Positions 12,509 to 46,734 of a stretch of 64,000 nucleotides of DNA are shown here, in pieces (position 1 is the first letter of the stretch; every line of letters begins with the position of its first letter). The stretch lies in sequence record MK573636; one strand, 5' to 3'. This DNA is from Escherichia phage vB_EcoM_PHB13. The translations under genes were made by a program, and so were the position numbers. The notes under the pieces are model-generated. The model did no database searches. It saw nothing but the letters and a program-made list of their open reading frames with translations, and had not been told where the DNA came from.

Positions 12509-13309
12509 ATGAAAAACATTATCGCTGCGATCGTTCTTTCTACTACGGCTTTCGGTGCTAATGCTGCGTCCTTTGATTGCGCTAAAGCTACTACCAAACC
12601 AGAGAAGTTTATTTGTGCTAATGAGTCAATCTCCGCACTGGATTCTAAACTTAATGAAGTATATGTTAAGGCTGTTAAGATTGATCCATCTCTTAAACAA
12701 GAGCAACGCAACTGGAATAAAACTGTTCGTGATACAATGATCAACATCGGGCAAATACAGCCACTGGAGGCTGTATATAACGCTCAAATCCAAAACTTGA
12801 TGAACGTATTACCTAAAGAAGAAACAGCGTCAGAAAGCGATTCAGAGACTTCTGCGAAGGTTGAAGAAGAACAACCGAAACAAGAAGAAAAAGTGGTAGA
12901 GCAACCGAAGAAAGAAGAGAAAATCTATGGATCTATCACTTACCAGTGCATTGCAAAATTTACATGGAAAATCATTGATGGTATTGAGACAGACAGCCGC
13001 AAAGATCCATTGTATGGAAACTCTACTTATGGCAACAAGGGCGGAAAGCTGAAAATGACCATGACCGAAGGTGAATTGTCTTCTTTCGTATATGTTGATG
13101 AGCGCGAAGTGTTTAAATCAAATCTGACACGCAGCAAACAATATAAAAATATGGTTGTTGGTATGAGCAAACCGGATGTAGCAGGATACTTCAACGAGTA
13201 CAAAATGTGGGTAGGGGAAAACGATGAAATCCGCTTTGAAGTCATCGAGAAAGGTCGCATTAGCTATGATTATGGTACTCAATATGTTTGCGAATATAAG
13301 AAGGGTTAA
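12509..13309 (+). CDS. secreted protein with DUF1311 (LprI-like) N-terminal domain
   Basis: Signal peptide MKNIIAAIVLSTTAFGANA; then C..A...E.FIC...S...LD..LN..Y......QRNW...VRD pattern typical of DUF1311. Confidence 0.5.
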   Translation: MKNIIAAIVLSTTAFGANAASFDCAKATTKPEKFICANESISALDSKLNEVYVKAVKIDPSLKQEQRNWNKTVRDTMINIGQIQPLEAVYNAQIQNLMNVLPKEETASESDSETSAKVEEEQPKQEEKVVEQPKKEEKIYGSITYQCIAKFTWKIIDGIETDSRKDPLYGNSTYGNKGGKLKMTMTEGELSSFVYVDEREVFKSNLTRSKQYKNMVVGMSKPDVAGYFNEYKMWVGENDEIRFEVIEKGRISYDYGTQYVCEYKKG

Positions 13310-15309: not shown

Positions 15310-15554
15310 AATTAGAACAAGCGATTGTATACTTTGAGATGGGCTATGATATTGCTCGTGTAGAGTGGGAAGATGGTGATTTTGTCCGATTGATTAATCT
15401 TCCAGAAACAGCTATTGCACTGGTCAAAGTAGAAAACGGTATACAACGAAATTACGCGTTCTCTGACGAAGACAAACAAGCCGATGACTGGTACGCTACA
15501 TGTTTTCATCATACAGCGTCAAAATGTGATTCAGGGGCTTCTATGCGCCAATAA
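15306..15554 (+). CDS. hypothetical protein (82 aa)
   Basis: ORF overlapping the previous stop (ATGA). Confidence 0.5.
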   Translation: MKLEQAIVYFEMGYDIARVEWEDGDFVRLINLPETAIALVKVENGIQRNYAFSDEDKQADDWYATCFHHTASKCDSGASMRQ

Positions 15555-15557
15555 AAA

Positions 15558-15590
15558 GAAGGGGAGGCCGAAAGGCTTCCCCTTTAAGTT
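15558..15590. terminator. convergent-gene terminator hairpin
   Basis: Stem GAAGGGGAGGCC / GGCTTCCCCTT with GAAA loop between convergent genes; T-run on the - strand side (after holin). Confidence 0.5.
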
Positions 15591-16245
15591 ATCTAATCCT
15601 TCCGAGGATTCTGGCAGATTGATTGCAAAGAGTATCTAAATTCTCAATGTCAATATCCGGTTTATTCTTCCATGAAATGGCGATACTACCAGAATAGACA
15701 TTATCGAGATTGAATATAGGACAAGAATACATGAAACCTATATCGATATTCTCTAATTTCTTTTCTCTTGATGGAATATACTGGAAATCTTTATCGGTAA
15801 AATATGATTTACCTAAAAGATGCCTACGATATTCTTCACTCGTTTTATTGATAGGGAATCCGCCTAAATTTTTTTCATCGATTGTGTGTGGTAGCTTTCC
15901 TTCATATGCCACCAAATCAACAAAATAGTTTAGGTTTTTCGGACGAAAACTAAAAACAGCAGAAAAATCGGCATCAGCCGACACATGAACTATCTGTAAC
16001 TGCTCCTGTGCTGCATTATCAAAATTGCGGTCTTTCTCTACCTGGAGAATGTGAGCATAAGTCTCATAACGAGTCTCTTTATAAAGCGCAAATAACTCGT
16101 TTTTACTATAAACGACAAATGCCAATATGGACAACACGACGGCAGCAAAAACACGAAGTACGAGCAACTCCGTGCTTTTAGTTGTGAAAATAGCGCGCAG
16201 GACATTTGAGATAGCAAAGTCTTTCCCTTTTTCAGAAACTTGCAT
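15589..16245 (-). CDS. t: holin T (218 aa)
   Basis: Matches T4 holin T: ...YKETRYETYAHILQVEK...EQLQIVHVSADADFSAVFSFRPKNLNYFVD...AYEGKLP...MYSCPIFNLDNVYSG...ARILGR; same length. Confidence 0.9.
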   Translation of the reverse strand: MQVSEKGKDFAISNVLRAIFTTKSTELLVLRVFAAVVLSILAFVVYSKNELFALYKETRYETYAHILQVEKDRNFDNAAQEQLQIVHVSADADFSAVFSFRPKNLNYFVDLVAYEGKLPHTIDEKNLGGFPINKTSEEYRRHLLGKSYFTDKDFQYIPSREKKLENIDIGFMYSCPIFNLDNVYSGSIAISWKNKPDIDIENLDTLCNQSARILGRIR

Positions 16246-16278
16246 ATAATGCCCTAAGATAACTATGACAGTGTACTC

Positions 16279-16518
16279 TTATTTAGGTAGTTGACTATCA
16301 CTAGGTTTATCTTGCTCGTTACTATCTTCTGACTGATCTTTATTAAACTCCTTATAAAGTTCTTCCACAAAACGATCATCAATTGGCGTATTGGTATAAG
16401 CCGCAAGACGACGAGCGCAATAGAAGAAAATTTTAGTGAGCATCTTTTCACTAATTAACTTTGACAATAATTTCATTCCGAAATTAGACAAAGCACCAAT
16501 GACGATATTATAGACCAT
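16279..16518 (-). CDS. hypothetical protein (79 aa)
   Basis: - strand ORF with strong RBS (TAAGGAGAAACGGCT-ATG) between gene 37 and holin; no gp38 resemblance. Confidence 0.5.
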   Translation of the reverse strand: MVYNIVIGALSNFGMKLLSKLISEKMLTKIFFYCARRLAAYTNTPIDDRFVEELYKEFNKDQSEDSNEQDKPSDSQLPK

Positions 16519-16558
16519 AGCCGTTTCTCCTTAGTAGTTCCCTTCCCTGGGATTTTCC

Positions 16559-19477
16559 TTAATTCTTTTTAAGTTCCGCTAGTTCAGCTTTAACGGCTTT
16601 CAATTCTTCGCTCATTTCCTGAAACGCCTTAATTAAAAGAGCGTTGACAGCAGAGTTAGAAATTGTTAAGATCTCTTCTGGTTTATCTGGATCGCCGATC
16701 TTAGAAGTTGTTACTGCTTCCGGCAATTCTTTTTCAAGATCCTGAGCAATAATACCAACTTCATGAGCGATAACAGTGCGGTCCGTCAAAGACTTAACCT
16801 TATCGTAGGTGTACACAGTCAAGCGATTAACTTTATCGGTGGCATTCTCCTTATACTCTTCCTTGTTGATTTTCAGACGAGCATCAGAACGAATATACAC
16901 ATCGTTAAACGAACCGTTACGTCCTGCCGACATGTCACCGGTGGCGCTAAAGTCAAAGTTGGCGTCATTAACGTTTAGGCGTGCTATAGCATTACCTATA
17001 GTGCCGCCAGGAACGTGTACACCCATTGCCGCAATATGATATTTTCCCCAATGAGTCGCTTTCCAGATGTTATGAGCGGAATCGGTTGATTGAGGACAGT
17101 CTACGAGGATTCCGGCAGAACGATCACGCCAGCTAGCCCAGCTACCACCAGCAACACTACCACGAATCAAACCTTTATCAGATCCGCCGACGCTACCAGA
17201 TTCCAACTGGATCATTTTATCTGCAAATTTCCACACCTGGGCTTGTTTCTGACCACGGAAGCGAATAACACCAGCATCATCGCAGTACATCAAGCCTAAC
17301 TCTAAACCGTTCGGATCTCTAAACCAGATGTGCTTATTGCCAGTACGACGAAAATCAATATCAGAACCGCCCAAAATAATATTACCGCCAGTGGTAATTG
17401 CTTGCGGCCTAAGAGTACCGTTGATGGCAAACTCGATTAATTCAGTACCCGGACCGCCAGGTCGGTGGGTATACCAATGCCACCCGCTTTCATCACCGCA
17501 TTCAAATATTTGTTTACGACTATCGTTACCCCATACACGTAGAGTAAACGTAGATGCGGCGGTCCCTTTACCCCATTTAATTTGACCAGCAGATTCCAAA
17601 TCACCGAAGAATTTAGTTTTAATCGCACCAGTTGATAAAGTACGTTCAGTGGTGAAGTGTGCACCCATGCTATCGTCAAGCTGTAAGATGTTATCACGCG
17701 CGTTATTGCTATCGCCCCAATGGTTAAACCGGAAGTAGTCGCGGGAATTTAATCGCCCAGCGTCGAAAGTCAAATGCCCTTTCTTAATGTAAACGTCATT
17801 ACTAAAGCGAGCGGCACGAGAAGCACGTTCTAACGTTAATGCTTCTTCGTTACCATCACCGCCTAATTGAACGTTACCGGAAGTTAAATCATAAATGAAT
17901 GGACGATAGCTATTCCATCCACCAAAACGATCATTTTCGGCAGTAGAAAGAAGATAAACTTTAGTGCCGTCATTACGCCAGAATGCACCGTAATTACCAA
18001 AGATCATACGGTATGCATTAGAGTTAGCGGAATAATATTGTCCGTTGGTATATACAATTTTTGTTTTTCCTACCGACAGCGTAACCTGACCAGTATCATC
18101 CAGTCTTAATGAGTTAGTACCTTCCGTTAATTCATTTACTAACTGTACGGTGTTAGTAGTAGCGTCACCATACCCTAGATAACCTTGACGGCGGTTAGCA
18201 CCGGAACGATAATCATAAAATTCTAGGTAATTACTTTGTCCGTCTCTACGCTCCATTCTGATAGCGTTATTTCCCTTAACGAAAAGACGATTTACAGTAA
18301 CCCCATTAAAATCAATTTTTAGTTGGTCTGACTGATCAGTAACGCCAGTAGCTAAACGATATACGCCACCCTCGACAACCTCATGCCATATTGTTTCTGC
18401 GGATTTGCTACGAAACTTACGAAGATATTTTTTATTGCTATCAGTCGAGTTATTCAAGCTGATAATATCATACGTTCCTTGACCGTTATTATCAAACATC
18501 AACGTTCCGGCTTTGTTTTCGGTGTTGAACATGGTAATAACACGAGCATCAAATTTAGTTCCGGTTTCTGGTTTAGTCGCCGAAAATTCAGGAACATCGT
18601 GAACAGTCAATGCAACATCAACAGTTTTTCCAAACTCTACAATAACGTTATCAGTGAAGCGACCATAGTTAACATAAATGTCATAGTTATCACCGGAAGT
18701 ATTAATTGCAAATACTTCATGGACGTTCAAAGAATTTCGACGATATGCAGCAATACTAACGCCTTTAGGGTTATTATTACCACTACGAATCACAATTTCA
18801 AGGAAATCCACCTGATCGTAGGAGTTAACATTAAATCCGTTCCCACCATAGATTCGCAGAAACGCCATCCGACCACTCTGCGGGATCATTGCGGATGCAA
18901 TTTTAAAATAACCACGGGTTGCTCCACCAGAAGGAGTAGACATTTTAACGTTCTTAACAAACATACGGTCAATTTCTTGTTTGCTATAGACGTTCAATTC
19001 TGAGGGAGTAGGTTTATCACCTTCGTGATACATGCGAAAGCTGAATCTCTTGTTACCATCCTTATCAAAGCCATAGGTTTTAACCTGAGAGGAACTAGAA
19101 CCATATTGAAATTCGAACCCGCGACCGTGTGCTTTACCGCTGGGATGAGGAATGTTCAGAATCAAGTTAGACCAATCATCAGCATTATTCGGTCGAAACG
19201 CACCAAAATAATTAAGATCTCGCGCGGTTTGGTCTTCAAAATAATTAGCGGTTTTACTTAAAATATAATTATTTCCTTTAACCTTACCCGCCATTGTAAC
19301 ATCGCTGTCATAAACCGGAGGACAACTTAAATTGATAATAGCACCGGAATCATTTTTAGTAAGAAGATATTGATCCGCAAGGTTGATTGCCAATTCCCCC
19401 GGATTCATCGTACTAGCATCCGGTCGACGACCTTTAGTGCTAGTGCGTTTAAATTGGATTCTGCTTAAATCTGCCAT
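16559..19477 (-). CDS. 37: long tail fibre distal subunit gp37 with C-terminal intramolecular chaperone domain
   Basis: N-terminus MADLSRIQFKRTSTKGRRPDAS...GELAINL matches T4 gp37; C-terminus ...SDARLKINKEEY...AVKAELAELKK resembles S74-type self-cleaving chaperone domains. Confidence 0.85.
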   Translation of the reverse strand: MADLSRIQFKRTSTKGRRPDASTMNPGELAINLADQYLLTKNDSGAIINLSCPPVYDSDVTMAGKVKGNNYILSKTANYFEDQTARDLNYFGAFRPNNADDWSNLILNIPHPSGKAHGRGFEFQYGSSSSQVKTYGFDKDGNKRFSFRMYHEGDKPTPSELNVYSKQEIDRMFVKNVKMSTPSGGATRGYFKIASAMIPQSGRMAFLRIYGGNGFNVNSYDQVDFLEIVIRSGNNNPKGVSIAAYRRNSLNVHEVFAINTSGDNYDIYVNYGRFTDNVIVEFGKTVDVALTVHDVPEFSATKPETGTKFDARVITMFNTENKAGTLMFDNNGQGTYDIISLNNSTDSNKKYLRKFRSKSAETIWHEVVEGGVYRLATGVTDQSDQLKIDFNGVTVNRLFVKGNNAIRMERRDGQSNYLEFYDYRSGANRRQGYLGYGDATTNTVQLVNELTEGTNSLRLDDTGQVTLSVGKTKIVYTNGQYYSANSNAYRMIFGNYGAFWRNDGTKVYLLSTAENDRFGGWNSYRPFIYDLTSGNVQLGGDGNEEALTLERASRAARFSNDVYIKKGHLTFDAGRLNSRDYFRFNHWGDSNNARDNILQLDDSMGAHFTTERTLSTGAIKTKFFGDLESAGQIKWGKGTAASTFTLRVWGNDSRKQIFECGDESGWHWYTHRPGGPGTELIEFAINGTLRPQAITTGGNIILGGSDIDFRRTGNKHIWFRDPNGLELGLMYCDDAGVIRFRGQKQAQVWKFADKMIQLESGSVGGSDKGLIRGSVAGGSWASWRDRSAGILVDCPQSTDSAHNIWKATHWGKYHIAAMGVHVPGGTIGNAIARLNVNDANFDFSATGDMSAGRNGSFNDVYIRSDARLKINKEEYKENATDKVNRLTVYTYDKVKSLTDRTVIAHEVGIIAQDLEKELPEAVTTSKIGDPDKPEEILTISNSAVNALLIKAFQEMSEELKAVKAELAELKKN

Positions 19478-19514
19478 TTTATAAAATCCTTAAACGGTTA
19501 TTAGAATAATATTA

Positions 19515-19545
19515 TTTAGAAAAGCGGGGAGATAATCCCCGCTAA
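19515..19545 (-). terminator. rho-independent terminator or attenuator between genes 36 and 37
   Basis: On the - strand: GCGGGGATTATCTCCCCGC followed by TTTTCT. Confidence 0.45.
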
Positions 19546-19547
19546 AA

Positions 19548-21038
19548 TTAGAAAGTACCAAAATCAATCACCGCATTAAGTGGAACTGCGCCAACATCAG
19601 CCGGAGTAGGTTTATTGCCTTCATGATAAAGCTGATAGCGGTCCACGGTTTGAGTATTGTTTCTAGAACGGAAAAACACGACCTTTGAGTCGTGGGTGAT
19701 CCCCAGCTTTTCGGTCCCTTTAATATCACTAATACGGTGAATCATAGCAGTACCATCAGCACCGCTTAACGCCGCATAACAGTTATCCCCGTTATAGTTA
19801 GTTTTAGCTGTTCTAACACCGTTTGCAGCCGGAACAGTTAACGGTCCTGTCATGGTATCGCCAGTTACGTTAACATAGCGAATATCGGCTAATTTACGGT
19901 GATCTACATAGTTCCATGCAGTCCATGATTCATTAGAACACGAACGCCAGCACATCGGATGATCAATAGATTCAGGATAATACACCTGAACAATTCGACG
20001 AGTACCGACCGCATCTTCTGGGCGATATACCATCAAAACGCCGTTATAATAACTATCAGACGGTTTATTAGTACCCGACCCAGCATTTTCCACACGATAG
20101 ATACCGCGATTAATAAGAGTGTTCCAATCAACGTTTCCAATGATGGTTGGATTTGCTACCATTGATTTTCTCTCAAAGTAGCTCAAACGAACCAATTCAT
20201 TAGGACCAGCAGGATCGTTTGTCGCCAACATTCTAGGCGCTTGCAAGTTACCTTCCATAATATCACCAGCACGTTTAACCTGTGCATCATTGGTGACATT
20301 GCCTAGCCCAACATCGGCTTTAGTTGGTTTATTGTTGGTGTGATAAAAACGACCTTCTCTGCCATTAACAAAAATGGTAGGCTCATCTTTACTTCGGAAT
20401 ACCAACGTATCAAGAACGTTACCATAATAGATCTTAGTCGCATCAAAATTAATTAAATCACGTTCCCTTGCAATTAATTTCGAATCAACCGATAGTTTAA
20501 CAGTGACAGTGTTTAAATTATATGTTCCTGTGAGAGTATCACCGCGACGAGACACCAAATCTAAATCATTATTCGTTGGTTTATTAACAGGGCTATAGAC
20601 GCGTTGACCTGTGTCTTTAATGGTTGTCCCTTCGATAGTCCCTTTAGACTTAAATTCGCCCGTTGTGGTGTCAATATACGCCATAATAACGCCATCACGG
20701 GCATTAACAAAGCCGATTGACTTCCATGAATGCAAACCCCAGCTTACGCCGTCAAAATTAGCGGCATCACTCTGGCCTTTAAAGATACCATTCTTTTTGG
20801 TTTCTCCAGCCGATGCGCTACCTACGCTTAAACCTTCCTCGAAATGAACTTGCTTTTGAAATGTGCCACCTTCGGATGCACTAACAGCATCAAAATCGGT
20901 AGCCGAAGGTCTATCAAAAGCGGTATAGATTTTATGACCTTTGTAGAAAAGCTGGTCCCCCGCTGGCTGGATCGTCAAGTTTCCTTGCGTCCAAATGGGA
21001 GATCCGCCTACAGTAGATCCATATTTCAAATCTGCCAT
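19548..21038 (-). CDS. 36: long tail fibre subunit gp36 (496 aa)
   Basis: N-terminus MADLKYGSTVGGSPIWTQGN matches T4 gp36 (MADLKVGSTTGGSVIW); position between 35 and 37. Confidence 0.8.
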   Translation of the reverse strand: MADLKYGSTVGGSPIWTQGNLTIQPAGDQLFYKGHKIYTAFDRPSATDFDAVSASEGGTFQKQVHFEEGLSVGSASAGETKKNGIFKGQSDAANFDGVSWGLHSWKSIGFVNARDGVIMAYIDTTTGEFKSKGTIEGTTIKDTGQRVYSPVNKPTNNDLDLVSRRGDTLTGTYNLNTVTVKLSVDSKLIARERDLINFDATKIYYGNVLDTLVFRSKDEPTIFVNGREGRFYHTNNKPTKADVGLGNVTNDAQVKRAGDIMEGNLQAPRMLATNDPAGPNELVRLSYFERKSMVANPTIIGNVDWNTLINRGIYRVENAGSGTNKPSDSYYNGVLMVYRPEDAVGTRRIVQVYYPESIDHPMCWRSCSNESWTAWNYVDHRKLADIRYVNVTGDTMTGPLTVPAANGVRTAKTNYNGDNCYAALSGADGTAMIHRISDIKGTEKLGITHDSKVVFFRSRNNTQTVDRYQLYHEGNKPTPADVGAVPLNAVIDFGTF

Positions 21039-21071: not shown

Positions 21072-21079
21072 TATTTATA
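21072..21079 (-). promoter_or_regulatory. candidate T4-type late promoter for gene 36
   Basis: Exact TATAAATA on the - strand 34-41 nt upstream of the gene 36 ATG. Confidence 0.4.
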
Positions 21080-21240: not shown

Positions 21241-22380
21241 TTAATCAACATCGAACTCTTTAAAGTTGTTGGATGTGATGTGTTTATTATCTCTGGGTAG
21301 TTTAAGAAGACTCATTACAGGGTTAGTAAAATCACCGTTATCCTGAATATGAGTTGTTCTAACACCATTAACACCAAATGAAGTAGGACCAGTAGTTTTG
21401 ACGACTCCACTGATCGGCGTTATTAGTATGTTTCTAATTTTAACAATACCTTCATTGGAGTTGGTTGGATATCTGATACAACCAGTTACTACACTATCGA
21501 CACCTTCCGGTACTGTATAGACTGCTTCAAACTTTTCCCATTGGTCTTTTTTGCTGGCATTGTATCTAACACCAGTTTTATATTGTCCATCGGTGAAGTA
21601 GTTGTGATAGAAACGCGCTGTTACGTTGGCTGCGGCTGCGGCACTATCACGGAACAATTCAAAGGATATTGATAGTTTGTCACCTGCCTTTATGTTAAAA
21701 TCTTCAAGTGGTGCGCTGATCTCATCGTGAGGCCATTGTATTAGCTCGAAATGTTCGGCATCTTCGCTAACATACTCAACCGGATAATCTAAAAATCGTT
21801 GTGGTGTTCCTGTTATAGCAAGATCATCTATAGTATCATAGACTTTCTCAATTTGTATAGATGAATCTTGTCCTTCCCCGTGAGTTGCTTGCATCCCTTC
21901 GCACACAATTTTACCCATTTTAGTAGAATAAATTGCTGCATATGATACACGAGGCATTTGCTGTAACAAAATGTGATTCGGGAATGATACCGATCCCATC
22001 TTAGAAAATACAACATCACTTATCGGATCTGCAAACAATTCTCCATGAGTTGCCATCGCAATGATATAATCACCTTTCAGCAAAGAAAGATAATCACGCA
22101 TTGCCAAAACAGCACCGCGACCATAGAATACCTTTTCTTCGTGTAGTTGTCCAGTTGGAGTAAGAACTTTAAAATTTAGGCCATTTTCATAGCCAGTGCC
22201 AACGATATCCACTCCATTAAATCTAATCCTTGCTGGTTTGGTAGAATCCGCATTAGATCCGCGCACTTCCAGCTTATACATCACAGAGTTATTTTCTGAA
22301 ATGCTGGTAAATGTCGCAGAGTCTTCGTCGAAATGCGCAAACCTAATTCCAGTGTTGCGTAATTCTATATCTTGTGTCAT
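21241..22380 (-). CDS. 35: long tail fibre hinge protein gp35 (379 aa)
   Basis: Size and position between gp34 and gp36 as in T4 (gp35 372 aa). Confidence 0.7.
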   Translation of the reverse strand: MTQDIELRNTGIRFAHFDEDSATFTSISENNSVMYKLEVRGSNADSTKPARIRFNGVDIVGTGYENGLNFKVLTPTGQLHEEKVFYGRGAVLAMRDYLSLLKGDYIIAMATHGELFADPISDVVFSKMGSVSFPNHILLQQMPRVSYAAIYSTKMGKIVCEGMQATHGEGQDSSIQIEKVYDTIDDLAITGTPQRFLDYPVEYVSEDAEHFELIQWPHDEISAPLEDFNIKAGDKLSISFELFRDSAAAAANVTARFYHNYFTDGQYKTGVRYNASKKDQWEKFEAVYTVPEGVDSVVTGCIRYPTNSNEGIVKIRNILITPISGVVKTTGPTSFGVNGVRTTHIQDNGDFTNPVMSLLKLPRDNKHITSNNFKEFDVD

Positions 22381-22417: not shown

Positions 22418-25400
22418 TTAGTCTTCCCAGATAAAGTCTACGGTACGAGTCAGATTATTGGCGATGATTTTAACATTACCAACTTTGATCCAATCACGAA
22501 CCGTCATAGAGTTCATTAAACCACCTTCTGCAACTACTGCCCCGATTTCCTGAGCTGTAGGCTTATTCTGTTTGGTGTAAATTTCACCCCATGCGGTCCA
22601 TTGACCACCAGTACCGGAACGGATATAATGTTTATGAGTACCATCAGGGGACCAAAGCTGGGTAAGCCCGTCCGCGTCAGTACCCCATTGCATCAGAGTA
22701 CCGTTTTTCTTCTCTGGATAAGTTTCTTTGATGTTCTGGGTAGTAACTCGCATATTCCAGAAACCGATGTTACCGATTGCTGGAGCGGTTGCCGCGCTAG
22801 CTTCATGCTTAACAGAAACAATAGGCGCATTATCCATAGTCAGCTTACCGACCATTGTATCGCCAGCATTCTTAACAAACTGACGGTTAAGAACTTCGTC
22901 AGCGTTTCCTGCGTGTACGATCTGATATTTCTGTCCGGCGATCTCTGTAGTTAACGTTTGATGACCTGCCTTGATGTTAACACTTCCACCGTGCCCGATA
23001 TTCAGCATACCATCTGGGGAACGAGTCATTGCCGGATTAGACTGGTCAACAATGTATAAACCGCCTTGTTTCGCATACAGGTTACGACCTGCAATAAAGT
23101 CTCTATATGCTGTCGCGTCGCCATTGTGTTTCATAGCAAAGGCGTAATGCTCGACGACTCCACCATCATTGATTTTACCGAAAGCGATAGCATCACTATC
23201 AACAACTTGCGCTGTTCCAGTACCACCAACGATAATAGACCATGAGTTTTTCATGCCTTCCGATGCGGTTGTGCCATGCAGAGTAATTCCGGTGTGTCCG
23301 TCAACTCCACGCTCACCCAACACCAGATGACCATTACTCGGATCATCAGTAGAGTTCTTAGTCACAGACAGAGTTTCAAAGGAACCAGATTTTAAGCACT
23401 CTAAATCGCCCTTCACGTTAACGTTTTTATTAAACGTGTAATTGCTCTCTATGGTCTGGTCAATGTCTCTACGCGCCCATTTAGCGGCCTCTACGTTACC
23501 CAATTTCAAACTATTCTGAGCGGTTGCCATCTTAGGTAAGAAATTAGCAAGTGCGTAGTTTAATCCTTTAGGGGTAACAGCAATTCCGTCATGCTGGTAG
23601 TTTCCTAGTTCTTGAGTAGAACCTTGCAGATTATCACCAACAAAACAGTTTTCCTGAGTAGCAACTTTCAAGAATCCACGACGCGCTTCTGTTGCTTTCC
23701 ATGTATCCTCTGTCTGAACAACATATTTGAAGTTCTTCGGAGAAATTGCTACATTAGCCAGTGTACCAGCCACGGTTTCGGCTTGAGTACCAACTCGGAT
23801 AATACCTTCTTTACCTTCGGTGGCTTTTTTGCCTTGTAGCTTTTTAGGCGTGATGATTGTAGTATCATCTTGACCAGCATCCGTAAGCTGAGTAGTAGCA
23901 ACTTTAGCGACACCTTTTGTGTCTTCGGTTGCATCCAGACCGCTGATCATGATACCTTGCCACAAATCACCAGTAAGGTTAAGCCCCTGAGTCGGATCTA
24001 CTTTCAAACGCTGTGCATTCTCAAAGAAGGTTTTAATCTTCAATGGGGTAGAAATGCGAGCATCGTCAAGACCTGCGTCAAACTCCGGTTGAGTTGCAAT
24101 TTCTGCTAAACCATGTAAAGTTTCCGTTGCGCGGCGAGTATGCAGCTTTTTAGGCGTGATGATATGGTTATCACTTTGACCTAAGTTTGTTTCTTCCTGA
24201 GTTGCAATTTCAGCGATACCAGTGCGCGATTCTGTAGCAGTACGTTTCGTTAGCGTGCGAGTCGTGATTAGTAAAGCATCTTGCGGGGTTGATTCTGTAG
24301 CCCCTTGCACTTCCGCGTCAGTTGCCAGATAGCCAACACCACGGGAAGTTTCGGTCGCCTTGACTTCGTTGATGTTTTGTGGCGTAACAATTTTAGCATG
24401 GTCGTTGATGTTATAGATCCCTGTACCAGCTTCGCCACGTCGAGCGGCAGCACTACCGCCAACCTGAACAATTTCAGCAATACCAGCGAGATCTTCGGAA
24501 GCGCGACGTTCTTCTAATTTCTTAGGAGTTATTGCGCGAGTATCGTCTAAACCTTCGTTGGTTTCATGTTGAGTTGCAATTTCCATCACACCACGACGGG
24601 CTTCGGTAGCAACACAATCATTTAACTTTTTAGGCGTAACGATAACATCATCCAGGAAGCTGGAACCAGTATCTTGATGCGTTTCCGCTTGAGTCGCAAT
24701 GCGAGCAATACCGCGTCGAGTTTCGTTGGCGGTTTTATTAGCCAGCATTTTTGGTGTTACCGCAACTTCGTCGCTAGGATTCTCTTCATGATTTTTATTC
24801 GTTTCAGTCTGGGTAGCCAGTGCAATTACACCAACACGATCTTTACGAGTCGGATCTACTCGTTCTACAATCGGGTGAGCATGTGCCACCAACCAGTATT
24901 TCTTACCATCATCAACTTCTGAATAAGAGAACTCCAGATAAGGTACATAATCATTTGCAGCGTTGAAAGACAATTCAGACACTCCCGTCCATGTATCGGT
25001 CCCATTGAATGGGTACTCGCTACGCTTAGGAAACTGAACCATGTTTTTCTGAATAAGGATTTTTGTATCCTCTGTGGCGGTGATAATACGGCAATTCTGG
25101 TTTCCTTGCATATACTGCATAGAAACTTGAATACGATCACCCTGCTCGACATTGGTCGGCAGCGTCAGAGTAACATCACGATCACCAAATACAGCAACAT
25201 AGCTATTAGGTTGCAAGCGAGTGTCATCGATGATCGGTTTAAGACGAACAGACTGATCACCATCCCACAAACGCCATAAGTTTTCCGTCTTGTCAAAGAT
25301 GAATACACCATGACCGCTACGCTTACCGATAATCTCTTTTAGACCGGACGTGCCAATTGATTGTTCTTCTGCGTGCTCATGAACTTTAACCGTAACGTGG

Positions 25401-26158
25401 TTGGTTGCGGTTAATCCGTCAAGGTCTGTAGTCTGGATCATGTCGCCATTGTTGGCAAACTTAGGAAGCACTAAGGTAATATTACCCAACGAACTACGAC
25501 GAAATACCTGATCACCATTCTGCATTTGAATAGCATCAATCGCTGGCTGTGCGTACACACCGCGCGGCTCTGTTCCCGTCTGATAAACATGCCAACGATT
25601 CCGAACAAAGATGAAATAGTTCATTGCATACGGGGTAGTGCAATACCATTTTCGGTTATACACATTACCGTTATGGTAAAACTCATGTCCTGAACTCAAG
25701 AACGATAATTCGTTAACACCACACTTGCCACCGATATCTTTTACTGTTATAGTGTCTCCCTCTGCTGGTTTAGTTGGCATAGAGAAAGTCAAGTTTGCAA
25801 ATTGACCATCTGCTGCGATATAATCACCAGACTTTAAAGGAGTATCACCGGAAGTTGCTGCAATATAATCCCAACGTGGGTCAGTGCGCAGTGCTTGCCA
25901 TTTAGTCGGGTCAAAATCACCTGCTGGCTTTGTGATATCTTCTTTTGCATAATACGGACGGTTTTGATAGATTGTAGTTCCGTATTGATCATAACCGCGA
26001 GTTGTGTCATACTGAGTAATACCATTATGGTAATTGAAAAATTCAACGTTGACCGCATCCGTTGATGTGTTTTTATCTGCGTATGCTACATTGACGACCT
26101 TTTCATTACCAGCGTCAAAGCCAAATGTGGCCTTGAAATGTTGAGAAAAATCTGCCAT
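22418..26158 (-). CDS. 34: long tail fibre proximal subunit gp34 (1246 aa)
   Basis: N-terminus MADFSQHFKATFGFDAGNEKVVNVAYADKN matches T4 gp34; internal ...GIARIATQAET... and ...GIAEIATQ... repeats and C-terminus ...IRDFLRIGNV-like also match. Confidence 0.9.
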   Translation of the reverse strand: MADFSQHFKATFGFDAGNEKVVNVAYADKNTSTDAVNVEFFNYHNGITQYDTTRGYDQYGTTIYQNRPYYAKEDITKPAGDFDPTKWQALRTDPRWDYIAATSGDTPLKSGDYIAADGQFANLTFSMPTKPAEGDTITVKDIGGKCGVNELSFLSSGHEFYHNGNVYNRKWYCTTPYAMNYFIFVRNRWHVYQTGTEPRGVYAQPAIDAIQMQNGDQVFRRSSLGNITLVLPKFANNGDMIQTTDLDGLTATNHVTVKVHEHAEEQSIGTSGLKEIIGKRSGHGVFIFDKTENLWRLWDGDQSVRLKPIIDDTRLQPNSYVAVFGDRDVTLTLPTNVEQGDRIQVSMQYMQGNQNCRIITATEDTKILIQKNMVQFPKRSEYPFNGTDTWTGVSELSFNAANDYVPYLEFSYSEVDDGKKYWLVAHAHPIVERVDPTRKDRVGVIALATQTETNKNHEENPSDEVAVTPKMLANKTANETRRGIARIATQAETHQDTGSSFLDDVIVTPKKLNDCVATEARRGVMEIATQHETNEGLDDTRAITPKKLEERRASEDLAGIAEIVQVGGSAAARRGEAGTGIYNINDHAKIVTPQNINEVKATETSRGVGYLATDAEVQGATESTPQDALLITTRTLTKRTATESRTGIAEIATQEETNLGQSDNHIITPKKLHTRRATETLHGLAEIATQPEFDAGLDDARISTPLKIKTFFENAQRLKVDPTQGLNLTGDLWQGIMISGLDATEDTKGVAKVATTQLTDAGQDDTTIITPKKLQGKKATEGKEGIIRVGTQAETVAGTLANVAISPKNFKYVVQTEDTWKATEARRGFLKVATQENCFVGDNLQGSTQELGNYQHDGIAVTPKGLNYALANFLPKMATAQNSLKLGNVEAAKWARRDIDQTIESNYTFNKNVNVKGDLECLKSGSFETLSVTKNSTDDPSNGHLVLGERGVDGHTGITLHGTTASEGMKNSWSIIVGGTGTAQVVDSDAIAFGKINDGGVVEHYAFAMKHNGDATAYRDFIAGRNLYAKQGGLYIVDQSNPAMTRSPDGMLNIGHGGSVNIKAGHQTLTTEIAGQKYQIVHAGNADEVLNRQFVKNAGDTMVGKLTMDNAPIVSVKHEASAATAPAIGNIGFWNMRVTTQNIKETYPEKKNGTLMQWGTDADGLTQLWSPDGTHKHYIRSGTGGQWTAWGEIYTKQNKPTAQEIGAVVAEGGLMNSMTVRDWIKVGNVKIIANNLTRTVDFIWED

Positions 26159-26209: not shown

Positions 26210-26774
26210 GTGGCAAAAACAAAATTTTGGGATATCGAGACACAGAAAGCGATAAAAGGTAGATTTTATCATGTTGATGGAATATTATACCATTTAAAGG
26301 ATTCTGTATCTGCTGGATTCCGAAAAGAAGGGTCCAGATACAAAAAAAGGTGATGTGGTAAGGGTACGTCTCCATAAAGAAGGATATTTATACTTTACAT
26401 TTTATAACAATGGTCATAAACTTAATCTGTTTGTACATAGAGTTGTCTGGTTTTTAGAGTATGGTACTCAGGTTGAACTAATAGATCACATAGACCAAGA
26501 CAAAACTAACAATAGACCGTCAAACATGAGAGAAGCAACAGAACAGCAAAATCAGTTTAACGTCTCAAAGAAAAAGGCTTGCCATAGCAAATATAAAGGT
26601 GTATCATTATCAACAAGCAAGAAAAAGCCGTGGAAGGCGTATATTGTTATCAATCGAAAGAATATACATCTAGGATACTTTGAGACAGAAGTTGAGGCGG
26701 CTAAGGCTTATGACCGTGCAGCACATGAAAGAGTTGGCGAGTATGCTTATTTAAATTTTCCAAAAAGAGGATGA
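26210..26774 (+). pseudogene. HNH-AP2 homing endonuclease-like gene interrupted by a frameshift at an A7 tract
   Basis: Fragment 26210-26353 (...FWDIETQKAIKGRFYHVDGILYHL...) stops just after AAAAAAA (26342-26348); downstream ORF 26355-26774 carries the HNH (FVHRVVW...IDHIDQDKTNN) and AP2 (YKGVS...AYIVINRKNIHLGYFETEVEAAKAYDRAA) motifs; removing one A joins them. Confidence 0.6.
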
Positions 26775-45251: not shown

Positions 45252-46734
45252 TATCATTAATCAGCTTGCAGCAACAGACAAAACATCGCTGAAAGAAAAG
45301 ATCCTGAAAGAATCTGCAAGCAATGAAACGCTGAAAGAATGCTTTTATCTGGCATATTGCAAACAGGTTACGTTTGGCGTAAAGAAATACGATAAACCAT
45401 CGCGTTATTCGTCTGTATTGTCTTTATCCGGTGCATTACAGGTCTTTAAAAATAAACTTGCCACGCGTCAAGTAACTGGTAACGCAGCATTACAGCTAGT
45501 TACCGATACTCTGACTTGCTTGTCAGAAGATGATGCTAAAGTTGCAATGATGGTCCTGAATCGTGATCTGGAATGTGGTTGTTCCGCTACCACTGCAAAC
45601 AAGGTATGGAAGAAACTGATCCCCCAGCAACCGTGTCACCTTGCATCGTCATGTTCTGATAAGACTATTGCTAATATCAAGTATCCGGCGTATGCACAAC
45701 TTAAAAGCGATGGCGCTCGTGGTATGGCTGATATTGACGGGGAAACATTAGCAATCTATACCCGTTCAGGTAATACCTATCAGGGACTTGATGATTTGTT
45801 TGCGGTTTTAGAGCGTCTACGAGGCCGTGGAATTGTTCTAGATGGCGAATTGGTATATATGCCTACCCTTTCGCAAACACCAGCGCAGAACTTCGTTGAG
45901 AGCATTTATGATGGTACTCTGTCATGGATATTTGAAGAAGAGGAAATGCCATTAACGCCAGTAGCGGAAGCAGTAAAAGAATCCGTTGTTGCAGATCGTC
46001 AGACCGGAAATGGTATCCTCAACAAATCACTGAAAGGAACTATTCCAAAAGAAGAAGCCCAATGTATTGTTTACACTGTCTGGGATGTTATCGACCGTGA
46101 TGTGTATTACGGAAACGAGAAAGCAACGAAGCAATATAAAGATCGATTCGAAGAACTAAAACAGATTGTTGAAGAACTTAACGATCCTCGTGTTCAGATA
46201 ATCGAAAACACTGTAGTTAACAATATAGATGAAGCTCGCGAAGTATATCATCGCTATGTAAACATGGGCTTAGAAGGTATTATCCTTAAAAATTTACATG
46301 GTGTATTTGAAGATCGTCGCAGTAAAGATCAGGTTAAATTTAAAGAAGTGATTGACTTCGACGCGGAAATTGTTGATGTATATCCGCATAGTAAAGACCC
46401 TAATAAGGTAGGCGGTTTTACTGTCCGTAGTGCGTGCGGACGAATGATGACTAACACCGGATCGGGATTGACTGACACCACAACCGAAAAAGGTGATGAT
46501 GGTATTGAACGTGTAATTCCGTTCGATCGTCGAAATGAACTCGACCGAGAAATGTTATGGGCTGACCGTCATAACCTGATTGGAAAAGTCATTGAGATGA
46601 CATGCAACGGGTATATCCGCAGCAAATCACGTAAAGAAGATGAACCGGAGTTCTCTTTATTTCTCCCGATCATCAAACGTATTCGCTACGACAAGACCAC
46701 TGCAAATACAGTAAAAGAGGTATTCGATGTGTGA
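45232..46734 (+). CDS. 30: ATP-dependent DNA ligase
   Basis: ...AYAQLKSDGARG (adenylation lysine motif)...VLDGELVY...EGIILKN...KFKEVIDFD... matches T4 gp30 (487 aa). Confidence 0.9.
   Translation: MKMSILNIINQLAATDKTSLKEKILKESASNETLKECFYLAYCKQVTFGVKKYDKPSRYSSVLSLSGALQVFKNKLATRQVTGNAALQLVTDTLTCLSEDDAKVAMMVLNRDLECGCSATTANKVWKKLIPQQPCHLASSCSDKTIANIKYPAYAQLKSDGARGMADIDGETLAIYTRSGNTYQGLDDLFAVLERLRGRGIVLDGELVYMPTLSQTPAQNFVESIYDGTLSWIFEEEEMPLTPVAEAVKESVVADRQTGNGILNKSLKGTIPKEEAQCIVYTVWDVIDRDVYYGNEKATKQYKDRFEELKQIVEELNDPRVQIIENTVVNNIDEAREVYHRYVNMGLEGIILKNLHGVFEDRRSKDQVKFKEVIDFDAEIVDVYPHSKDPNKVGGFTVRSACGRMMTNTGSGLTDTTTEKGDDGIERVIPFDRRNELDREMLWADRHNLIGKVIEMTCNGYIRSKSRKEDEPEFSLFLPIIKRIRYDKTTANTVKEVFDV

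Follow-up and report, generated by a model that had tools for sequence, protein, structure and literature searches.

The distal end of the long tail fibre encoded in the stretch of Escherichia phage vB_EcoM_PHB13 DNA analysed here (64,000 nt of record MK573636, hereafter "the window") is very likely the standard T2/T6/S16-type tip of an RB49-like (Krischvirus) phage. Under this model, the 972-aa gp37 precursor would trimerise with the help of its own 109-aa C-terminal intramolecular chaperone. Once the trimer had folded, Ser864, activated by Lys869, would cut the Arg863-Ser864 bond, and the chaperone would leave. The exposed end of gp37 would then be capped by the gp38 adhesin, whose glycine-rich C-terminal loops would recognise the receptor (for RB49-like phages, OmpA or some O antigens). 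The gp38 gene would be located ~55 kb from gene 37, and the 79-aa open reading frame (ORF79) that follows gene 37 would be an unrelated small conserved gene. The arrangement is real, ordinary and already described: the window carries a new allele of the known Krischvirus gene 37, and the layout with a displaced gene 38 (g38) is known. It therefore matters little as a discovery, and its value lies in the annotation of a well-understood host-range module.

The window is a segment of a Krischvirus genome (RB49-like, Straboviridae), since the GenBank phages matched by megablast with positions 15500-19600 and 1-25000 are all RB49-like. The highest identity for the gene 37 region (15500-19600) is 91.8%, to AV108, with FL37 as the second-best match, and the highest for positions 1-25000 is 96.8%, to MIZ6. 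An exact-protein look-up found no record with an identical gp37 protein. The start of the window falls in a region matching RB49 dda, near 7.2 kb, and rIIA and gene 39 are present in the window. The long-tail-fibre module is encoded on the minus strand and comprises gene 34 (22418-26158), gene 35 (21241-22380), gene 36 (19548-21038; 496 aa, matching phrog_16472 over its full length), which encodes the proximal part of the distal half-fibre, and gene 37 (16559-19477; phrog_1699, E 1.3e-184), which encodes the precursor of the distal long-tail-fibre subunit. These genes are followed on the same strand by ORF79 (16279-16518; phrog_402, E 5.2e-20), which is listed as "Dc5" or hypothetical in RB49, and by the holin gene t (15589-16245; 218 aa; Pfam Phage_holin_T, E 4.5e-61). 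Relatives of gene 36 are annotated as gp36 hinge connector, and the annotation of phrog_1699 is "long tail fiber protein distal subunit". The gene 37-dc5-t locus of RB49, Phi1 and JSE is alike in gene order and sizes, shares the 79-aa frame and the holin, and also has g38 displaced. The differences from RB49-like phages are allelic only. The gp37 proteins of RB49 and AV108 are 82-89% identical to that of the window, rising to 98-99% in the chaperone domain, and the differences are mostly in the fibre shaft, at aa 101-150, 351-450 and 651-700.

An earlier, sequence-only reading of this DNA had likened the C-terminal ~110 aa of gp37 to the intramolecular chaperones of phage tailspikes and fibres, and this likeness is well supported. 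The peptides that it quoted do occur in the gene 37 translation. The interval 16559-16900 encodes gp37 aa 859-972 plus the stop codon. The profile search for Peptidase_S74 that the same reading had suggested gave a match to PF13884 at aa 864-923, over profile positions 1-58 of 58 (Pfam, E 1.4e-11), scoring 44.9 bits where the curated cut-off is 22, far beyond chance. The descriptor of PF13884 is "chaperone of endosialidase". The complete domain, aa 864-972 (109 aa; 16562-16888, minus strand), has the expected Ser and Lys in place and forms the extreme C-terminus of the 972-aa fibre protein. Its predicted fold was compared with solved structures using an AlphaFold2 monomer model of aa 765-972 (mean pLDDT 80), which covers the chaperone and the 99-residue tip that precedes it. 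The only significant PDB matches of this model in Foldseek were 7DC3, the intramolecular chaperone auto-processing (ICA) domain of MyRF (E 7.5e-5), 3GW6, the intramolecular chaperone of the K1F endosialidase, endoNF (E 4.9e-3), and 3GUD, the chaperone of the GA-1 neck appendage (E 1.2e-2), with Foldseek probabilities of 0.97-1.00. TM-scores to these solved chaperones were moderate, at 0.34-0.47 on the query, for a monomer model that includes the tip. Because the Pfam match, the invariant motif residues and the predicted fold agree, the assignment of the gp37 C-terminus as an intramolecular-chaperone (S74) domain is solid.

The remainder of gp37 resembles other fibre proteins in parts. The presumed mature distal tip, aa 765-863 (16889-17185, minus strand), is beta-rich in the AlphaFold2 model, and a Gp34_trimer-like internal domain is found at aa 454-529 (17891-18118, minus strand; PF21446, E 1.7e-28). 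A phmmer search with full gp37 against PDB sequences returned 4UXE and 5NXF (T4 gp34) and 5YVQ (Mu fibre S) only, with no match to the needle/head domain of T4 gp37.

The catalytic motif of the chaperone, SDARLK, has Ser864 (codon 16886-16888) as its first residue and conforms to the pattern S-D-x-x-x-K, with the Lys five residues past the Ser (S864-D-A-R-L-K869). When 27 homologues, each with PF13884, are aligned, Ser864, Asp865 and Lys869 do not vary, and neither do Val860, Arg863, Leu868 and Asn871. We take Ser864 and Lys869 to be the catalytic dyad, by the published work on endoNF and T5. The assignment also rests on the study of Salem et al., who reported that the last 113 residues of gp37 from Salmonella phage S16 are autocleaved at DLNVS^SDRRIKK, where the caret marks the cut (PMC7917993). 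The equivalent site in gp38-carrying Tequatroviruses (the fPS phages), DVYIR^SDGRLKI, was aligned to the S16 cleavage site in that work. The site in the window, DVYIR^SDARLKI, differs from that of the fPS phages at one position, with Ala for Gly. From the position of the motif, the scissile bond is predicted to be Arg863/Ser864 (16886-16891, minus strand), and, by analogy with S16, its cleavage is predicted to release aa 864-972 after the trimer has folded. RB49 gp37 has been described as having a self-cleaving chaperone, with gp38 attaching afterwards (PMC9569957). The predicted processing site at Arg863/Ser864 is useful for the design of recombinant fibre constructs.

The sequence-only reading had also concluded that the receptor-binding tip is organised differently from those of T4 and T2. 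This is correct for T4 and not supported for T2. In T4, with which the window has the module 34-35-36-37-t in common, gp38 acts as a chaperone and the gp37 needle is the tip; T4 gp37 is unprocessed, and gp38 is absent from the virion (PMC3157838). In T2 and T6, the C-terminus of gp37 is cleaved and the fibre is then capped by gp38 (Trojet et al., PMC3157838). A self-cleaving gp37 end therefore characterises the T2 type and is no deviation from it. Relatives of the chaperone were found by tblastn in 1446 phage records, and the ends of gene 37 in phages of the T2 type are among them: identity to the window chaperone is 66.7% for T6, 70.9% for RB14 and up to 77.8% for other Tequatroviruses (T4_ev240), and RB43 is 51% identical in this domain. 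S16 gp37, from the gp37-gp38 complex (6F45_A), matches over the C-terminal 145 aa (E 5.7e-5). In this alignment SDARLK is paired with SDRRIK, such that S-D-x-R-x-K is shared at the homologous position of the two chaperones. The S16 protein has no recognisable similarity just upstream of its cleavage site, and the alignment begins at 6F45 residue 71. The gp38 proteins of the RB49-like lineage have a Gp38_N attachment part and glycine-rich motifs, as in the S16/T2/T6 type. One difference is that the gp38 gene lies directly downstream of gene 37 in S16, T2 and T6, whereas it is ~55 kb away in the RB49-like lineage. This displacement concerns gene order and not the structure of the fibre. The likeness to chaperones outside this group is more distant. 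The K1F endosialidase (3GW6), GA-1 (3GUD) and MyRF (7DC3) domains have PF13884, the Ser-Lys dyad motif and the predicted fold in common with the window chaperone, but identity in structural alignments is 10-21%, and these chaperones are found on a tailspike or a transcription factor rather than on a long tail fibre.

The interval from gene 37 to the holin gene is indeed free of a gp38 gene, as had been claimed. In the list of open reading frames, ORF79 alone separates the stop codon of gene 37 (16559) from t. A tblastn search with RB49 gp38 across the whole 64-kb window gave no match at E<=10, and a scan for glycine-richness in all window frames of at least 100 aa identified no gp38 candidate. 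There is no gp38 gene in the window because its expected locus lies outside, ~37 kb before window position 1 when the coordinates of relatives are mapped onto the window; the window therefore says nothing on the presence of gp38 in the phage. More generally, when a gene is missing from its usual position in an incomplete stretch of genome, this is no evidence that its function is lacking. A displaced g38 is a known peculiarity of Krischvirus, and in RB49 a small frame occupies its place (PMC3157838). The annotation of RB49 (NC_005066) has "g38; similar to T2 and RB69 gp38 adhesin" at 45367-46143, far from gene 37 at 151717-154656, and the 258-aa product shows the glycine-rich motifs seen in gp38 adhesins.

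The relatives point to the same layout. Among the matches listed in a tblastn search with RB49 gp38 (40 records, beyond which 755 further records matched), gp38 was found at 81-100% identity in at least 24 of the 30 relatives with the gene 37 locus, including AV108, Phi1, JSE, ECD7, 011D4, GoldenSnicker, SSG23, Whisky, Cognac, the Makalu phages and others. The gp38 matches listed had no identifiable entry for FL37, FL38, W115, Delraymugoa, Aragogtheria or the first-listed RB49 record. The distance between gp38 and gene 37 in the relatives is 53-57 kb; in AV108, for example, gene 37 is at 66.9-69.8 kb and gp38 at 123.8-124.5 kb. MIZ6, the closest genome overall, has a 261-aa coding sequence (123322-124107) near the place predicted for gp38. 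It is annotated "tail fiber protein; host specificity" and was assigned as gp38 by annotation, size and position. Judging from these genomes, the gp38 gene in this phage group has not been lost but lies elsewhere, ~55 kb from gene 37. Extrapolation from the relatives suggests that gp38 is also present in this particular genome.

The distribution of variation bears on which protein contacts the receptor. In an alignment of gp37 from seven Krischvirus phages (the window, AV108, RB49, GoldenSnicker, 011D4, SSG23 and Makalu_003), 95% of columns are invariant in the chaperone, 70% in the last 63 residues of the tip (aa 801-863) and 52% in aa 1-800, with the troughs of conservation in the shaft. The six corresponding gp38 proteins are at least 92% invariant over residues 1-100, the attachment part that includes Trp7 and Trp20, and differ most at aa 201-225. 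The pattern agrees with a model in which a conserved gp37 end docks the conserved N-terminus of gp38 and the distal loops of gp38 determine specificity, but not with one in which the gp37 end binds the receptor itself. In S16, cleavage exposes the surface on gp37 where gp38 docks (PMC7917993), and by analogy the gp37 tip at aa 765-863 is presumed to be the docking platform, with gp38 probably docking on cleaved gp37. Tequatrovirus PaulHMueller (Bas45) has a gp38 that is 90.5% identical to that of RB49 and adjoins gene 37. A shared gp37 tip was considered for this phage and rejected, as its tip is unrelated and the match is to the chaperone only, at 40% identity. This gp38 lies beside an unrelated gp37 tip, which suggests that docking tolerates different tip sequences, and the docking interface therefore cannot be read from sequence conservation alone. 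For host-range prediction or engineering in this phage, the appropriate target is the distant gp38 and not the end of gp37.

Other models for the tip have some support. The cleaved end of the gp37 trimer could itself be the receptor binder, with no separate adhesin, as in a tip like that of T5 pb1 or K1F. The lack of gp38 in the 64-kb window is consistent with this model, as is the chaperone, which is ~44% identical to the cleavable S74 end of T5 pb1 and T5-like L-shaped fibres. In T5, however, the trimer end itself is the receptor-binding domain, whereas the RB49-like lineage has a separate gp38 adhesin, encoded at a distant locus in the great majority of relatives among the matches listed and, by annotation, in MIZ6. 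Moreover, host-range mutations in RB49 map to gp38 (E230K/Y231S; PMC9569957). Neither a pb1-like fold nor a hypervariable tip was observed: the Foldseek match of the monomer model to the T5 pb1 tip was not significant (4UW7, E 1.7, probability 0.14), and in the seven Krischvirus phages conservation is higher in the tip than in the shaft. The gp37 end ranks with the best-conserved portions of the protein, whereas variation would be expected in a tip that binds the receptor. We consider this model very improbable. An S74-like end that is a degenerate remnant, aiding folding while remaining uncleaved such that full-length gp37 is found in the virion, would be consistent with the literature, in which we found no demonstrated cleavage of any Krischvirus gp37. 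It is nevertheless scarcely credible, since Ser864, Asp865, Lys869 and the surrounding motif do not vary in the 27 homologues and 95% of the domain is invariant within the genus, as would be expected of a working catalytic site, and the homologous domain of S16 is cleaved (PMC7917993). There is also a very small chance that this phage, unlike its relatives, has lost gp38, with either the cleaved gp37 end or a Dc5-family protein recognising the receptor; in a weaker version of this proposal, Dc5/PF26925 would link fibre assembly or adsorption to lysis control.

ORF79 could instead replace gp38 functionally, as a small adhesin or a fibre-specific chaperone. The frame sits where T-even phages have gp38, a strong Shine-Dalgarno sequence (AAGGAG) lies 7 nt upstream of its ATG, and its transcription is probably late, together with that of genes 36-37. 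Such a role was raised as one possibility for the small frames that follow gene 37 in other T4-like phages (Trojet et al., PMC3157838). However, ORF79 has neither glycine-rich motifs nor a Gp38_N domain, and its homologues are not confined to genomes in which gp38 is displaced. A related metagenomic phage contig (L005) carries the chaperone end of gene 37, gp38 (Gp38_N and GP38), a 76-aa frame and the holin gene in succession, so that gp38 and an ORF79 homologue lie side by side; the 76-aa frame is 61% identical to ORF79, and the holin is 85% identical to that of the window. In a second contig (L002), the ORF79 homologue follows a 524-aa Gp10_C-type fibre gene with no S74 hit on record. The ORF79 family thus always adjoins holin t, whether or not gp38 is upstream, and its constant neighbour is the holin and not a type of fibre. 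Given this constant neighbour and the coexistence with gp38 in L005, a role as a substitute for gp38 is most unlikely, and a T2/T6/S16-type tip with a displaced gp38 gene remains the preferred model.

Homologues of ORF79 carry PF26925 (Phage_PM2_Gpl), and ORF79 itself had no match in Pfam or NCBIfam. A search with an ORF79 profile against 1.84 billion representatives retrieved 20 small proteins only. The invariant core of the family is FFYCARRLA..T.TPIDD.FVEELY. The N-terminus of ORF79 is moderately hydrophobic, with no 19-residue stretch that is clearly membrane-spanning. Two exact matches to the T4-type late promoter box were found near the fibre module: TATAAATA upstream of gene 36 (21072-21079, minus strand) and TATAAATA upstream of gene 34 (26385-26392). 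Neither an exact late box nor a convincing terminator was found between gene 37 and t. Genes 36 and 37, ORF79 and t may therefore share a late transcript, for which the gene 36 box is the candidate start.

The position of g38, the gene for the gp38 adhesin, is variable among close relatives. Evidence for this came from a Logan contig of a related phage, L005 (SRR8048117, L005:2-2164), where the chaperone end of gene 37 is followed by gp38, a Dc5-like ORF of 76 aa (ORF76) and the holin. gp38 occupies the canonical slot in a phage whose holin is 85% identical to that of the window and whose flanks share 77-96% nucleotide identity with it, such that placement of g38, canonical or displaced, differs between close relatives.

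The distal fibre itself can also be replaced. In a second relative, L002 (ENA ERZ27235516 contig, L002:1722-4286), the place of gp37 is taken by a distal fibre of 524 aa that carries a Gp10_C domain and for which no match to S74 is on record. A Dc5-like ORF and the holin still lie downstream of this Gp10_C-type fibre. The distal fibre type has been exchanged wholesale in L002, while the surrounding frame is conserved.

The adhesin may move independently of the fibre tip. RB49 gp38 and the gp38 of the Tequatrovirus PaulHMueller/Bas45 (L008:541-5262) share 90.5% identity over aa 8-260, despite coming from phages of different genera with unrelated gp37 tips. It looks as if only the adhesin was exchanged, horizontally and recently. 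In P0033, a single predicted protein of 303 aa from an E. coli assembly, the N-terminus is gp38-like (Gp38_N/GP38 Pfam matches) and the C-terminus is an S74 chaperone. Recombination, a chimeric assembly or a wrongly called ORF would each account for this combination.

Within gp37, aa 454-529 (17891-18118, minus strand) strongly match the C-terminal trimerisation domain of T4 gp34 (E 1.7e-28), and the same residues also match the tail fibre protein S of phage Mu (PDB 5YVQ). This shows that domains have been shuffled between the proximal and the distal proteins of the fibre. At 496 aa, the product of gene 36 (19548-21038, minus strand) is over double the length that PMC3157838 gives for gp36 (roughly 220 aa). 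It matches Pfam Phage_T4_gp36 weakly, at 21.4 bits and under the cut-off of 26, and its N-terminus (~77 residues or fewer) also matches distal-fibre-subunit PHROG families, e.g. phrog_5667 at aa 1-77.

A distant match to the profile of ORF79, the Dc5-family ORF between gene 37 and the holin, is the 196-aa signal-peptide protein P0049, which carries YKYTDTPADKRSVDDLHKR in six tandem copies; the Dc5/PM2_Gpl core T-D-T-P-x-D is thereby present as a repeat unit. Upstream of the holin, the early region contains a 266-aa ORF (12509-13309, plus strand) that has a signal-peptide-like N-terminus, MKNIIAAIVLSTTAFGANAAS, and a Lys/Glu-rich linker, and that may encode a secreted or periplasmic phage protein.
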